A stretch of DNA of 62,902 nt, counting the filler, from Globobulimina sp. (lineage: Eukaryota), in assembly GCA_003354225.1 (NCBI GenBank). It is 38 parts of 38 records of this genome, joined end to end, with 100 filler letters (N's around TTAATTAATTAA, not from the genome) between each part and the next. Parts side by side here need not be neighbours in the genome. Positions count along the whole stretch, not along the records: positions 16,591 to 18,149 come from PIVH01014835.1; 37 more parts are not named here. The stretch is one strand, 5' to 3'. The notes below the pieces were generated by a model that searched no databases, was not told where the DNA came from, and saw nothing but the letters and a program-made list of their open reading frames with translations. This document shows, piece after piece, positions 2,805 to 48,521 of this stretch. Positions within the stretch are counted from its first letter, which is position 1, and every line of letters begins with the position of its first letter. The translations under genes were made by a program, and so were the position numbers.

Positions 2805-3218
2805 TCAGGGTGAATTGTAATAGGATTCAGTGAAGGAAAAGTCACAGATCAGGGGGGAGTGATCGGATAGTTGCACATCTGGGATTGTAAAATTTTGTAC
2901 CAGAAGCTCTTTACTGTGAAGGATGAAGTCCAGTGGCCTATGTGGCGCATGGCTGTGGTGGGACGGGCTGTTATCAGGGTTTGCATTTTTCATGTTGGTA
3001 GCGGCTAGAAAAAGTTCAAGCTCTGTGGAGCCCCAGAAAGTGTTGAAATCCCCTCCGATTATCACAGGTTTGTCGGTCTCTTTGACTAGTTGGTGGAGAT
3101 ATTGCAACTGATGCTGACGATGTCGGAATTTTAATGAGAGGTGGACGATGAAAAAAACCACTGATTCAAACTCAGCCTGAATGATAAGACGCTTGATGCC
3201 TTCTTTGAAATAGTGGTA
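2805..3218 (-). CDS. Bacterial endonuclease/exonuclease/phosphatase (EEP) family protein (5' partial)
   Basis: VHLSL, PVIIGGDFN, LDFIL and SDHSPL motifs; higher GC than the rest of the contig. Confidence 0.9.
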   Translation of the reverse strand, partial: YHYFKEGIKRLIIQAEFESVVFFIVHLSLKFRHRQHQLQYLHQLVKETDKPVIIGGDFNTFWGSTELELFLAATNMKNANPDNSPSHHSHAPHRPLDFILHSKELLVQNFTIPDVQLSDHSPLICDFSFTESYYNSP

Positions 3219-4977: not shown

Positions 4978-5949
4978 ACAATATCAAGTTACGAAACCGA
5001 AGGTCATGATCAAGTCATGATTGTTGACAATGATTTTTCAAATGCTGATAATAACGTGATCTATGGTGGTTCAGAACAAATGGTACTTATGGGTAATCTG
5101 GTAGAAAATTCAAGTTTAACCCATGTTGTGAGAATCTGGCAGGCTTTTCGTAGTGTCATTAGTCACAATATTTTATCAGGAGCAAATTTAGACAATAGCA
5201 GTGGGCGGCATGCATTAAAGCTTCACGGTCCATTTGTGGAAACACTGGCAGATAATAGTGGAAATGAACACATTGTGAATCCTTCGCGTTATATAATGAT
5301 ATCAGATAATGTGTTCGGAGGTTGCGGACCATGGACAGTTGCCATCGGACCTCAAAATGCCAATTACGATGAACGGCTAAGTGATATCATTTTAGAAAAA
5401 AACAGATTTTTTGCAGACTATGGTTTGCAAAGTGTTAATGAAGTTTCCCGCTCACTCTTGGTTTGGGCACGCGACGTAACTATAAGAAATAACATTTTTG
5501 ACGGTAACGGATCTGGTCCCGCATATGTTGGAGTTACTGTTGAACAACGCGGTATTGAACCACCGCCTTTGCATGTCCAAATTTTCAACAATACAGTTTA
5601 CAAAACTGATGCAGCAGATGAAGACGCTTATAATATGTATCTTGCTGTAGACATTGCAGATACCGCCAATCAAATTTCGGTGCAAAATAATTTAGTTCAC
5701 TTACCGAATTCCGGTGATTTAGTAATGGTATTCCGAGATGAAAGTTCAGATCTTACTGAATCCAGTAATCTGCTAACCGACCTACCAGTCCTTACTGATC
5801 CCGATAATAGTTATCATTTTTTAAGAGATTATAGCTTACAAGCTGGCTCTCCAGCGATTGATGCAGGTGAAACGATTTCAGTATTGGATGACTTTGCTGG
5901 TAATGATCGGATAGGATCTTTTTATGAAATAGGCGCATTTTCGTATTAA
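4978..5949 (+). CDS. Bacterial right-handed beta-helix protein with choice-of-anchor-Q-like C-terminus (5' partial)
   Basis: Repeated I-x-NN-x-F beta-helix units; C-terminal YSLQAGSPAIDAG...DDFAGNDR...EIGAF. Confidence 0.75.
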   Translation, partial: TISSYETEGHDQVMIVDNDFSNADNNVIYGGSEQMVLMGNLVENSSLTHVVRIWQAFRSVISHNILSGANLDNSSGRHALKLHGPFVETLADNSGNEHIVNPSRYIMISDNVFGGCGPWTVAIGPQNANYDERLSDIILEKNRFFADYGLQSVNEVSRSLLVWARDVTIRNNIFDGNGSGPAYVGVTVEQRGIEPPPLHVQIFNNTVYKTDAADEDAYNMYLAVDIADTANQISVQNNLVHLPNSGDLVMVFRDESSDLTESSNLLTDLPVLTDPDNSYHFLRDYSLQAGSPAIDAGETISVLDDFAGNDRIGSFYEIGAFSY

Positions 5950-9954: not shown

Positions 9955-11486
9955 GTTATTGTTATTGCAGATATGGCAAAACAATAACCAAATGACTCAG
10001 ATGATGATGATATTGTCATTGCAGATATGATTGCACCAACCCCAGGCAACGCAGATAATGCCAACATAACCACCATCCCTCCATCCAACGCAGATTCTGA
10101 CACACAACCCGATGATGACCCGTACCTTAAATATTCAGCAGTTGACACGGCGCTGAAGTACGCAAACACAAATTCCGCGCCGGGATATGACGGAATCAAA
10201 TCAATCCATCTTAAACTGAACAATGACACTCTTTTTAATGTCTGGAACGATACTTATGTCATCCCATTCTACTGTCGGTTAGGATCCATCATCGCCATTC
10301 TAAAACAGCCTGATGGTGATCACAAATTTAATATCCCCATCAATCTTTGCAAAATAATCAAATCAATCTATAACAATTCACACTCAGCCATACTAAATAT
10401 CCCATTCATCACTCAATTATTTAAACTGCATAACGGTGTGTTACAGGGTTCGGTGCTAAGCCCCATCCTCTTTGCTGCTTTCATAAATGATATGATTGAC
10501 GAATTACAGGATTCGAACAAAGGCGCCAACTCTCCAGACCCTCACGAACAAATAGCCTGCATCTTCTATGCAGATGATGTCATATTATTGGCCAATACGG
10601 TCGAAAATCTCCAATTCCTTCTCAAAATTTGTGAGAAGCACAGCAAAATATGGGCGTATATGTTTAATGCCAAAAAATGCAAAACCATCATTTATAATGA
10701 CCCCAATCTCCTTTATAACAACACAAATCATTATAACACTGATCAAAAAAAACAAATCAATAATGAATATTACACCAAAATCAATTATAATAACTACTTA
10801 CCTGCACCAATGGTCCTATTACAACAATCCAAAAACAAACAGACATTGGCAGTTGACATCAACGGCCATATACGCAGTTACTACAATGCTGACATCCCTG
10901 AACAGCATCGCCAACTCTTCAAAGAACACTGTGAATACTACAGAAACAATATCAGCAATAAACCATTTCATATAATATGGGATAACATCATATTCGATCC
11001 GACCTGGGCCCCGGGATCCCTTCGCCCATAGAAAGATGGACTGTGTTGAAATTATCTTTCTATTGGAAACTAATACACAACAAACCAATATCATACATGC
11101 ATAAATGGTGTACCCTCCCCAATATAGCCACATACACACTTTATAAACAATACATTGATCTAAAAAATAAATGGCTGCCAATTGAACAGCAACTCAATGA
11201 AGACAACATCATAACATCTGATCCTTTCAATGAGGCATTAAATCCAACTGAATTGCGTCCATCTATTGTCCTAAAACAACACAAAGGCATTGTCCACTCC
11301 TTCAACAACTACCATCCATTAAGAATCCTCAAACACCATCTATCCGATTATAAAGCTATGAACACGTACGAGGTCCCTGACTTAGATGATTATGTTAAGG
11401 GTATTGATACGCCGAATTTCTCGTCTTTTTCCATTATTGTGTCCATAATATTTGATGTTTTTGTTTCGAGATCTTGTCCTAATTAA
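9955..11486 (+). mobile_element. Degenerate non-LTR retrotransposon reverse transcriptase
   Basis: APGYDGI, GVLQGSVLSP, YADD and FNAKKCK motifs. Part of RT domains 2-3 appears deleted, and the ORF is broken at about 11031. Confidence 0.85.
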
Positions 11487-13272: not shown

Positions 13273-14831
13273 TGCACAGCTAACACCACTTAACAAAGGT
13301 GACATTTATACAGTAATTTCACATTGTTTAGATGGCAGTCTTGGACATGCAGCCAGATTCACGGCTATGCAAACAATGACATATTTTCCAAATGTTTATG
13401 ACAAAGAGATTTGCGCAGTGGAGAAAGAACGTGTTATGCGCATTACAATCGGTAATTGGTCATCAACCACCACCAGAGATAACCAATGTCATCAACCGAG
13501 AAACACACAGAATGGAGGAAGTCATTTATATGATACAAATCGATCAAGAAATCCACCTGAGGTTGGTTATACATGTCATACATGTCATAAAGCAGGTCAT
13601 TGGCGTTCAGAATGCCCAGAAGAACAATTGGACGAAGAACAACAACCATTAGAGAGACAGTCAGCCTGGTCAACTTCATATGTGGGACTGACAGAAGCTA
13701 AAAAGAAAGTTACAATAACAAAGAAAGAAATTGCTAACATCGAATGGGAACTTGTAAGTTGCAATGGTATTATAGGTGAAGGACCAACAAATTACCTTGA
13801 TTATTTGCATCAATTTGCCATGGCCACAGGACGTGCATATCCGATTGAAAATTGGGATAATTTGCCAACAGCCAAACCGAACTTGGTCCCCAATTCGAAT
13901 TATCCAGACTTGAAACTCGATAATGAGAACTGGATTTACTGGAGCGAGATAGGACGACAAGAGGACGAAAGGTATGCAGTAAATAAAAATAGAATTGTAA
14001 TAAGAGAGACTAAGATACAAATAGATAAATACAATGTAGAGATGGCGAGACTCAAGAATGAGGCTACGGGAACATCAACAGTAGAATTAGAATTTTCTAG
14101 TCGTTCAGTAGAGTCTAATGGTAACAAGAAGACTTACAAGTTTGCTTCTTCAGGGCCAGGAGTATGTACAGCCCGGTCGAATCGGTTGAATGAAAATACA
14201 CTAAATGCAACTGTGTTGACAGCATTGCCTGAGGGCGAAATTGATTCTGATTCCGTTATTGTGTTACAACCCATGGAATTAGCACTTTATGTACTCCGGC
14301 AGCGTGTCCCAGTATGCAAATTAGCCGCATTAGCCGACACTGGCTCTAGACTTACTATCGCACAAAAATCAGTTTGCCAAATTGCTCGCATTCCTATGTC
14401 CGAATTGCGTAGTTCCCATCACAAACAAATTGTTGGTCTTGGGGGTTCGATTGATATTTTGGGCAAAGTTGTAATGACTTTTTCTATTGGTGATATGGTA
14501 GTAGAACAAATAGTACATGTTATACCCGACGACCCTCGTGTGCCACTGGTCATATTGGGCATAGACTTTTTCCAACGTCATAAAGTCGGATTCGATTTTG
14601 CGGAATCAACTATGGCATTGTACGGGCAAAAGCATCCACTGGGACGATACAGAGTTAAAGGTACAGCAGTTAGTTATGCAGCTGCATGGCCAGAGATGCC
14701 AGGACTTCAACAAGATGAACAAGACAGTGAAGAAGAGTCCGATCGAATGTCATCACAGGACTTGCACAGCATCAACCAGATAAAGAAAAATGCTTTAAAA
14801 ATAAGCGATCAAAGAAAGAAACAAAAACAGC
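13273..14831 (+). mobile_element. LTR retrotransposon (Ty3/gypsy-like) gag-protease region
   Basis: Zinc knuckle CHTCHKAGHWRSEC; aspartic protease ALADTGS...ILGIDF. Confidence 0.8.
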
Positions 14832-16490: not shown

Positions 16491-16648
16491 NNNNNNNNNN
16501 NNNNNNNNNNNNNNNNNNNNNNNNNNNNNNNNNNTTAATTAATTAANNNNNNNNNNNNNNNNNNNNNNNNNNNNNNNNNNNNNNNNNNNNCCCACCCCCC
16601 TACCACGAGAGCACCTATGCCCCCTATGGTATTATGCTATGAGGTTTA

Positions 16649-16734
16649 ACTTGATAGTAGTCTACTGACGAGGTCCCCTATCAAGTGTATTTAATTGTGA
16701 ATTGGGTCTAGTACTATAATGGACCGAAACCTAA
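16649..16734 (+). ncRNA. Non-circularly permuted hammerhead ribozyme, copy 1; predicted cleavage after C16708
   Basis: Core CTGACGA 16665-71 and GAAA 16726-29. Stem II GGTCC/GGACC. Stem III TTGGGT/ACCTAA. Stem I TAGTCTA/TAG(T)ACTA. Extra helix ACTTGATAG/CTATCAAGT. GUC triplet. Confidence 0.85.
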
Positions 16735-17169
16735 CCATATATTTATAATGTTATTTTTCTACATGTATGTATTTATTTATATTTATTTTTATTATTGCCT
16801 ATTGGAATAGTTTTGCTATGTTTTTATTATTACTATATTATTTATAGATTATATAATATAGATTTTGAATAGTTTATTAAAACTTTTAGTATGTTTTGTT
16901 AATGCATTATCATTTCGACAAGGCAAATATTGTATAGTTTCCAACTTTTTTGTACAAATTTCAGCATAAAATCTTATTCCCAGAATTAATTCTCTTTTTC
17001 CAAAAAACAATTCACTAAATATTTTCCACTTCTTGTGACCCCGAGTCCCGACCTTCGGAGGGGCCACTGTTGTCGTCACCACTGTCCCGTGTTTTTCTTT
17101 CTTTCTTCCTCTGTGCAGGCCATAGCTAGTTATAATTATCTACTGAGCCGATTTACTAAAAGTACTTTT

Positions 17170-22661: not shown

Positions 22662-23123
22662 TCTTTCTTTAGGCTCTTAACGTTTCCTATTAAAGGGTGG
22701 TTCTACCTAGGCTCCCTTCGCTCCACGGACGTTACTCCGCTTCATCACTACTATGGGCCATCTGACTCCCTGCCTTAAAACCTTCTCAGGTTCCTCGCTT
22801 TTATACTTGTCACCTGATACTTCATCCTTGAAGAGCCGGCAGGGTCTCCCACGTTCATCTAATTACTTTAGTTGCATGCCATGCTCTCTGACTCCGGAGA
22901 TGCCTATCTCTTCTTCCCTGTATCGTTAAGATAGATATTGTCTTCGCATATGTTCCGAACATCTCGACCATCTCTCATAATCCCCATAACGGAGCTCTAT
23001 CACTTCAGCCTTCCGGCTTACGGCCTACAACCTCCCTGTCTACGCTTAGCCATAACTGTTACCAGTTACCACTCAAGACTCGGTAGTAATGTATTGGGTC
23101 TATACTTTTTACATGGATCTATC
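22662..23123 (-). mobile_element. Bacterial-type group II intron, 5' RNA domains I-III (partial)
   Basis: Minus strand has CCGAG..GGTAAC..AAGCGTAGACAG, GAACGTGGGAGACCC and GGAGTCAGATGGCCCATAGTAGTGATGAAGCGGAGTAACGTCCGTGGAGCGAAGGGAGCC, typical of DI to DIII. Confidence 0.85.
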
Positions 23124-33171: not shown

Positions 33172-34012
33172 TAGAAAGTTTTGTGTTGGGACAGGATGAG
33201 CTCCAGAGCCAAACACCACCAGCTTGTGTTGTTGCTTGATTATATACAATAGTGTTATTAGCATACGCTCCATCTGAGTTATAAAAAGAAATTCCTCCTC
33301 CCCATGTTGCATGATTATGAGCTACAACATTCCTTTCAAAAATAAATTCGCCAGCATTGAAACTGTCCGTTCCCCCACCATGAACACCTGCTACATTATG
33401 TATGATAATATTATTACGTATTACAGGGGAAGACTGACTATATATTGCTATTGCTCCAGCATCTTCTTCAGCGAAATTATATGCTAATGTAGAATTAACA
33501 ATTTCGGGGTGAGTATTAAAACATCCTATTCCACCTCCTCGGTATGCATTGTTATGTTGAATTTCGCAATTGCTTATAGTAATTGAAGCATTCGGAGATG
33601 CATAGCACAAAATTCCACCACCAGCATATTCAGGAAAACTTGACGAACCCAAATCAGTTAATCCATAACTTACGATGCAATAATCAAGTATGGAAGTTTC
33701 ATTCGTTCCCAGGAACCTGATTCCATGCCATCGATTATTAGTATCTACAGCTGTAAAAAGGATCTTGTCTGTTTCATTTCCTTCAGCCAATAATGATCCT
33801 TCTACAATAAACTTAAACCATCCGTTAAATTTGACTTGTACACCGGGCTCCACAATTAAAGATGTGAGTGGAATAATAGTAATTTCTCCGTTAACGATAT
33901 AGGGTGACCCAGAAAGGGTCCATGTTCCAGAAACAGGCCCCGGAGGGACTTGCGTTTGGGCAAAACTTAAAAGTGGAACCGTCATGATGATAATTAGTAG
34001 AATTTTTTTCAT
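33172..34012 (-). CDS. Secreted Bacteroidota-like right-handed beta-helix protein (3' partial)
   Basis: Signal peptide MKKILLII..SFAQ, VSGTWT..SPY and repeated N-A..GGGI units. Confidence 0.8.
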
Positions 34013-34276
34013 AATATCTATTTTTATGATTAAAGTTTCCAGGCTTGAATTTTTTGAGATTATTAATACATTGATTTTCAATGTTCAAGCACAATGTAAA
34101 ATAACTACAAATTTACCATGGGTACATAGTAAGATCGTAGCAATCTATGGTAAATCCGGAAGGAAAATTGTAGACTTCTGGTATATAATATGAATCTTAT
34201 AAATATTCAGATAAGTTTTGGATTTCCAGAAGTTACCATCAACACGACACTTTAAGATTCATTTTTATTAAATCTT

Positions 34277-47989: not shown

Positions 47990-48521
47990 NNNNNNNNNNN
48001 NNNNNNNNNNNNNNNNNNNNNNNNNNNNNNNNNTTAATTAATTAANNNNNNNNNNNNNNNNNNNNNNNNNNNNNNNNNNNNNNNNNNNNGTTTTTCTTTG
48101 TTGTTTTCGTGTGATTGCATTTGCTTTACATTGTACGAATGGTTTGAGCTTAATCTATTTAATTAAATTCATGGATACCATAGTTTTAAATGGTTCTTTC
48201 TCCTAAAAAGTTAATTCATATTTGGCAGTATCATAGTTATTGTTAGTGACATGACGTTACCTCTCCTAGAAACTAACACCAATACAAAATTAAATTATGA
48301 CAACAATTATCTACTTTCCTCATTAGACTATGTCCAACTAACGGTTTTTTGAAACGTTAACTTTTAGTGTTAACTTATCTTTAAGAGGATTGCTTGCCAG
48401 CTGCGTGGATTAATAATTTGTCTTCATAGTATGTCCTCAGCTGTTTCTCTGTCTGGTTTATAATTCATTTGAAAAATAAACCTCCACATAAAAAATCAAT
48501 AATGGTAAATGCAATAAAAAT

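Follow-up and report, generated by a model that had tools for sequence, protein, structure and literature searches.

The three strands of a hammerhead ribozyme normally keep to a single cyclic order, from which types I, II and III result. In the hammerhead reaction a 2′-OH attacks the 3′ phosphate, which yields a 2′,3′-cyclic phosphate and a 5′-OH. Natural hammerheads with a non-circular permutation of the strands have been described by Eckert, Friedrich, Weinberg and Weinberg (Nucleic Acids Res 2023; PMC10085705). In their nomenclature, Block C denotes CUGAnGA, Block S the cleavage site and Block G the GAAA. Almost all of the motifs presented there, type SGC included, are exclusive to metatranscriptomes, i.e. 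RNA, and type SGC typically has a linker of three nucleotides from stem I to stem II. Type CSG comprises two similar sequences, named CSG-1 and CSG-2, reported from metagenomic DNA only and from no known organism, with no deviation at conserved core positions and with a helix that joins stems I and II. Cleavage of both in vitro occurred at the predicted site, releasing 5′ products of 48 and 49 nt and 3′ products of 29 nt at the slow rates of 0.004 and 0.026 per min. The authors consider the evidence for biological relevance to be weaker for type CSG than for type SGC, on account of the modest covariation. A literature search for "type-CSG" or for a hammerhead "non-circular permutation" returned only PMC10085705 and papers citing it; within the literature searched, no other paper employs the term "type-CSG".

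The stretch that we analysed (hereafter the window) is 62,902 bases long and consists of 38 unrelated contigs of 1557-1559 nt each, with N/TTAATTAATTAA spacers between them. Near the start of the contig at 16591-18149 lies a candidate ribozyme, copy 1 (16649-16734, +). Its layout had been set out in an earlier note and was borne out exactly when the sequence was re-read. The parts are:

16649-16657 (+), 5′ strand of helix X (ACTTGATAG in DNA, ACUUGAUAG in RNA), partner of 16678-16686
16658-16664 (+), 3′ strand of stem I (TAGTCTA; UAGUCUA in RNA), start of Block C, 7 pairs with 16709-16716
16665-16671 (+), catalytic core strand CTGACGA (CUGACGA in RNA, C3-A9), as read from the sequence
16672-16676 (+), 5′ strand of stem II, GGTCC (GGUCC in RNA), end of Block C, 5 of 5 pairs with 16721-16725
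16677 (+), unpaired C between stem II and the 3′ strand of helix X
16678-16686 (+), 3′ strand of helix X (CUAUCAAGU), pairing with 16649-16657
16687-16701 (+), unpaired linker of 15 nt from helix X to stem III, with which the variable sites G16687 and T16686 are listed
16702-16708 (+), first half of Block S, namely stem III strand TTGGGT (UUGGGU in RNA, 16.6-16.1) and C17, 6 pairs with 16729-16734
16709-16716 (+), 5′ strand of stem I (TAGTACTA in DNA, UAGUACUA in RNA) with T16712 (U16712 in RNA) bulged, end of Block S
16717-16720 (+), 4-nt linker TAAT (UAAU in RNA), leading from distal stem I directly to distal stem II
16721-16725 (+), Block G, 3′ strand of stem II, GGACC
16726-16729 (+), Block G, GAAA, with A16729 as A15.1
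16729-16734 (+), Block G, partner strand of stem III

A second candidate, copy 2 (46929-46838, −), lies on the contig at 46433-47989, which is unrelated to that of copy 1. The two copies have no flank in common, and the strand order of copy 2 is that of copy 1:

46929-46918 with 46896-46885 (−), helix X, 12 bp
46917-46912 (3′ strand) and 46865-46860 (5′ strand) (−), stem I, 6 bp
46911-46905 (−), core strand CUGAAGA
46904 (−), extra U between CUGAAGA and stem II
46903-46899 with 46856-46852 (−), stem II, GGUCC/GGACC as in copy 1
46866 (−), C17, with the predicted cut between 46866 and 46865
Between stem I and stem II (−), UAA linker
46851-46848 (−), GAAA
46877-46867 with 46848-46838 (−), stem III, extendable to 11 bp

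The strand order in these sequences is non-cyclic, so that each of stems I, II and III crosses the other two. In copy 1 the blocks run C (16658-16676), S (16702-16716) and G (16721-16734), copy 2 is arranged alike, and Block C is flanked directly by helix X (9 and 12 bp, in copies 1 and 2 respectively). The core bases are complete in both copies, comprising CUGANGA, GAAA, A15.1-U16.1, C17 and a GUC cleavage site; copy 1 has CUGACGA, GAAA and a GUC cut before U, copy 2 CUGAAGA, GAAA and a GUC cut before A. Block order, core positions, paired stems with covariation and a helix joining stems I and II all agree with type CSG. From these sequence features we consider it likely that copies 1 and 2 are type-CSG hammerhead ribozymes, a non-circular permutation of the hammerhead. 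The novelty that the earlier note implied for the permutation was too high, because the permutation had already been published as type CSG (PMC10085705). It is a rare permutation known since 2023, and the present copies are further examples of it, not a new kind. They supply new sequences for assays and for the building of search models, and reveal no new mechanism.

If copy 1 acts in this way, its + strand RNA would form two hairpins, namely hairpin X (16649-57/16678-86) and a hairpin closed by stem III (16702-07/16729-34). The first would display a 20-nt loop holding the 3′ strand of stem I, CUGACGA, the 5′ strand of stem II and the unpaired C16677, and the second a 21-nt loop holding C17, the 5′ strand of stem I, UAAU, the 3′ strand of stem II and GAA. 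Pairing between the two loops would make stems I and II and restore the ordinary three-helix hammerhead junction with all of its core bases. Stems I and II are presumably clamped at their distal ends by helix X, which together with the linker of 3-4 nt would keep the two stems side by side, replacing the usual loop-loop contact. The 2′-OH of C16708 would then attack its own 3′ phosphate, and the RNA would be cut between C16708 and U16709. Placing the cut after C16708 is what the hammerhead rule predicts, and it fits the site logic experimentally established for CSG-1 and CSG-2. The upstream RNA would keep about 60 nt of the ribozyme and the downstream RNA 26 nt.

The present copies resemble CSG-1 and CSG-2 (PMC10085705) in block order, in the conserved core, in the helix that ties stems I and II, in having two pseudoknots in place of the three-way junction, and in being found in metagenome DNA and not in the genomes of known organisms. 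In contrast to those two similar sequences, we have here two lineages whose stems I and X are wholly different and whose genomic setting is visible. Counted from the start of stem I, the cut lies 51 nt away in copy 1 and 52 nt away in copy 2; counted from the start of helix X, it lies 60 and 64 nt away. Since stem I to the cut already takes 51-52 nt, compared with published 5′ products of 48-49 nt, copies 1 and 2 probably differ in sequence from CSG-1 and CSG-2, which by their product lengths would be the shorter ones. Type SGC (the HRIMA-1 motif and its variants), as the same source presents it, is likewise a non-circular permutation with a short linker between stems I and II and an extra helix opposite; its order, however, is S-G-C as opposed to C-S-G, and the present copies are in DNA.

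The type III hammerhead (Rfam RF00008) has the same catalytic core, and in both forms the RNA runs in and out through stem III, the open helix. It differs in that here the 3′ strand of stem I, CUGANGA and the 5′ strand of stem II have been moved upstream of the cleavage-site strand, and that helix X and the 3-4-nt linker take the place of loops 1 and 2. Martick et al. are said to have reported, in 2008, a discontinuous hammerhead in the 3′ UTRs of mammalian Clec2 genes, in which the strand order is circular with a long insertion. This ribozyme reportedly resembles ours in that its substrate and enzyme parts are set apart and that it is positioned after a coding region, whereas in the present copies the strand order departs from circularity and the complete unit measures 86-92 nt.

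To weigh chance resemblance in AT-rich DNA we used a generic type-CSG descriptor, comprising CUGANGA, 0-1 nt, a stem II of at least 4 bp, GAAA, a stem III of at least 4 bp that includes A15.1-U16.1, an H17 that is not G, and a stem I of 5 bp or more containing no more than 1 bulge, with the blocks in the order C-S-G. Stem sequences were free and helix X was not demanded. In favour of chance, short strings such as AATTGGGTC with 1 mismatch occur in the window as often as chance would have it (17 found, 17.05 expected). The full descriptor, however, matched the window twice, at exactly copy 1 and copy 2, against 0.03 expected: when all contigs were shuffled 300 times with dinucleotides preserved, 291 rounds had 0 matches, 9 had 1 and no round reached 2 (mean 0.03). 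In 1.04 Mb of other sequence, made up of 152 loci from other collections, it matched only two loci, L015 and L017, both homologues of copy 1. Moreover, helix X is present in both copies though it stands outside the descriptor, and a covariance model that drew on no sequences but those of the copy-1 family, with helices X and III only, recovered copy 2 at 35.1 bits (E 6e-6). An origin by chance is accordingly a reading to which we give next to no credence. These results, with the pairing counts below, uphold the earlier description of a hammerhead in non-circular order closed by an extra helix. With filters off, the same model found no third copy in the window, the next best match having E 0.37. 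This match, at 48241-48336 (−) with 13.9 bits, contains strings like the stem I and linker of copy 1, has AUGAGGA instead of CUGANGA and is without the GAAA block; it is probably a chance match.

The pairing was counted by coordinates, the MAFFT alignment of all four sequences being out of structural register. In the three copy-1 sequences (window, L015 and L017) the 27 pairs of the four helices are all standard (81/81 cells), and standard pairs fall to 25-37% when partners are slid by 1-3 columns. Helix X contributes 9/9 standard pairs in 3/3 of these sequences. The only paired site that varies among them is U16732 (T16732 in DNA), which is C in both L015 and L017, turning a G.U of stem III into G-C. 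In copy 2, 34/34 listed pairs are standard. When the two copies are compared, 17 of the 26 comparable pairs are the same, 2 are changed on one side, 7 are changed on both sides and 0 are broken. The double changes fall in stem I (3) and in helix X (4), and the one-sided changes swap G-C and G.U at two places in stem III. As stem II does not vary, it says nothing on covariation. The claim of two independent copies with compensatory changes in stems I and X is borne out by these counts; as they come from two independent lineages only, the covariation is good qualitative support and does not amount to a statistical test. What is new here is the existence of two mutually divergent type-CSG lineages, with 7 pairs of stem I and helix X changed on both sides and none broken, and the case for non-circular RNA permutations as real, selected natural forms is strengthened. 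The strings GGTCC, AATTGGGTC and GGACCGAAAC are, as claimed, common to both copies. The single unpaired nucleotide said to lie between stem II and the 3′ strand of helix X exists in copy 1 (C16677); copy 2 has two (UG), unless a sixth U-A pair is counted.

The helices differ in predicted strength. In copy 1 the duplex of helix X amounts to −9.6 kcal/mol and that of stem II to −7.1 kcal/mol; stem I is weak, the values for copies 1 and 2 being about −2.5 and −2.2 kcal/mol. Helix X of copy 1 appears in the nested minimum-energy fold. In both copies, this fold has GGGUC, the cleavage-site strand, paired with GGACC of stem II, as follows:

16705-16710 with 16720-16725 (+), competing GGGUC/GGACC hairpin of copy 1
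46870-46867 with 46855-46852 (−), competing GGGUC/GGACC hairpin of copy 2

According to the fold models, this hairpin would hide C17 and the cleavage site. It may be the reason why the strings are identical in both copies, or it may be a conformational switch.

We then sought relatives. A metagenome scan with the pattern CTGANGA..GGTCC..GGACCGAAAC returned 24 stretches, of which L015 and L017 are homologues of copy 1 and the other 22 fail the CSG descriptor; none of the 24 matches copy 2. The window contig is about 90% identical to L017 over 430 nt and about 94% identical to L015 over 165 nt, beyond which L015 diverges. L015 differs at 2/86 sites of the ribozyme compared with 19/97 aligned downstream sites and a further 40 gap columns (Fisher p = 0.0003), and both of its ribozyme changes are structure-neutral or improving. 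For L017 the corresponding figures are 1/86 in the ribozyme and 4/99 in the flank, a difference that is not significant (p = 0.37). These paralogous or allelic loci show the ribozyme kept while the flank decays.

One DNA run, X1, and no RNA run is listed as containing the stretch; X1 contains 0.34 of the sampled words, and part of the copy-1 contig. In this run, eight contig pieces cover the ribozyme region at ≥80% likeness. One contig of 255 nt has only 16650-16739 in common and other DNA outside, and one of 652 nt has 16698-16734 in common, preceded by a different block that contains CUGAAGA. The change G16687C is seen in L015 and in the majority of the contig depth of this run. Two variant contigs of the run lack the bulged T16712, so that stem I would be a perfect 7-bp stem in them. 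The contig variants show that the sample contains several diverged copies. New here, too, are these variant copies and, for the first lineage, the two loci L015 and L017. The string of Blocks S and G occurs in at least 119 stretches of prokaryote genomes. None passes the descriptor among the matches listed, and we therefore take these to be chance matches. In viral contigs the same string gave 9 stretches, none passing the descriptor, and the full pattern gave 0. The abundant family proposed in the earlier note is only weakly supported, the tally being two further loci among the 24 metagenome stretches, several variant contigs of run X1 and 0 viral matches.

Five of the stretches that fail the descriptor have related arrangements. 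L004 2157-2238 (−), L005 148-229 (+) and L024 54-135 (+) have a common repeated unit with CUGAnGA-U-GGUCC, in which the extra U and stem II are the same as in copy 2; the last unit reads CUGAnGA-U-GGUCC, a 4-nt loop and GGACC-GAAAC, like the stem II hairpin of a conventional hammerhead. L006 1568-1644 (−) and L023 1042-1120 (+) are related to each other and have similar flanks, with an insert of 50-60 nt between CUGAUGA-U-GGUCC and GGACC-GAAAC. A search of L004, L006, L023, L015 and L017 returned nothing from Rfam at threshold.

Two other readings of the locus have to be weighed against an active type-CSG ribozyme. A conventional type III hammerhead would have its stem III at 16639-16645/16729-16735, its cut after U16646 and the interval between GGUCC and GGACC as a large stem II insertion. 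Rfam Hammerhead_3 does align copy 1 so, with an alternative GUU at 16644-16646, but at 14.6 bits against a cut-off of 48.5 (E 2.5) and with non-standard pairs in stems III and I. No Rfam 15 family reaches threshold on copy 1 or copy 2, and the alternative fold exists for copy 1 only, Rfam giving no hammerhead match on copy 2. Moreover, T16732C, as found in L015 and L017, abolishes the type III pair A16642-U16732 and improves stem III of the CSG fold, and the type III fold is incompatible with helix X, whose pairing survives 4 double changes. On the low score, the missing match in copy 2, T16732C and helix X, the type III fold at 16646 was rejected and appears to us highly improbable.

The other reading accepts the fold and denies it a function. 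Copies 1 and 2 would be structurally intact but biologically idle relics, either passengers of a young repeat or too slow or prone to misfolding, and their conservation would reflect recent copying. Copy 2 speaks against this, as it has no common flank and yet keeps all core bases and helices through 7 double changes, an outcome hard to obtain without selection on the fold. Furthermore, the flank of L015 has decayed about 8-fold faster than the ribozyme, although the L017 comparison, which falls short of significance, and the 98-99% identity of the three copy-1 loci over the ribozyme, with 14 aligned bases just upstream identical too, are what recent copying would leave. The low rates published for type CSG and the competing GGGUC/GGACC hairpin in the minimum-energy folds also count in favour of idleness. 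On balance we regard a relic as improbable, and we retain the type-CSG ribozyme as the preferred reading.

The copies offer a first view of the genomic setting of type CSG, namely long, ORF-free, repeat-rich, AT-rich and eukaryotic-looking DNA. The copy-1 contig (16591-18149), L015 and L017 have many short repeats and a longest stop-to-stop frame of 114 aa. Copy 1 is preceded by G/C-rich and tandem-repeat DNA. In L015 (1-170) the ribozyme is immediately preceded by a G/C-rich tract, and this in turn by two to three tandem units of ~73 nt; the window contig begins too late to show such units. An ORF upstream of copy 1 was considered and rejected as coding, because the homologous DNA of L015 follows the tandem repeat and consists of tandem repeat and a C-rich tract. 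Copy 2, on the minus strand, begins at the TGA stop (46928-46926) of an RGG-rich ORF of 85 aa (47183-46926, −), and this stop codon sits within the 5′ strand of helix X. The ORF contains in-frame 27-nt repeats, and no Pfam family was found in it. A possible mini-intron (GTTAGT...CAG) is present about 70-90 nt before copy 2. Should the ORF be a real gene, copy 2 might sit in its 3′ UTR or in one of its introns.

Hammerheads of Penelope-like elements are accompanied by a neighbouring RT/GIY-YIG ORF or occur as tandem minimal type I hammerheads in terminal repeats. Here L015 and L017 have no long frames, and there is one ribozyme per contig. The earlier remark that no Penelope-like ORF is visible on the copy-1 contig holds, the 114-aa frame being the longest on its 1.56 kb; the link to such elements finds no support within contigs of this length. 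As each 1.56-kb contig carries one ribozyme, no circular-RNA unit is visible. Judging from their ORF-free, repeat-rich nature, the ribozyme contigs would belong to an AT-rich eukaryote. A tentative suggestion, which we put forward with some doubt, is that an AT-rich microbial eukaryote transcribes a dispersed non-coding repeat and that the type-CSG ribozyme processes the resulting RNA. It is a good deal more speculative, and rather unlikely, that type CSG as a whole is a DNA-encoded, multi-copy family of a microbial eukaryote that serves as transcript-end processing modules with the GGGUC/GGACC hairpin as an on/off switch. If true, such a family would give the C-S-G permutation its first host setting.

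The other contigs of the window are varied. Found on them are a reverse transcriptase (RVT_1), a gag-like zinc knuckle accompanied by a weak aspartyl-protease match, as well as an endonuclease/exonuclease/phosphatase domain and two right-handed beta-helix proteins of bacterial appearance (contigs listed jointly as 9988-11031, 13274-14830, 2805-3218, 33173-34084 and 4978-5949). A fragment of Hsp70, one of a topoisomerase-like ATPase and a prolidase are present as well. The prolidase is 78% identical to EukProt proteins, which signals a protist-like eukaryote in the assembly and not the origin of the ribozyme contigs. With eukaryote-like and bacterial-looking proteins side by side, the contents of the window point to a mixed metagenome with an AT-rich eukaryote. 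Lastly, the only Rfam family above threshold in the window is the group II intron domain D1-D4 (RF02005), found at 22882-23122 (−) with 125 bits (E 4.9e-35) at the end of the contig at 21566-23123.
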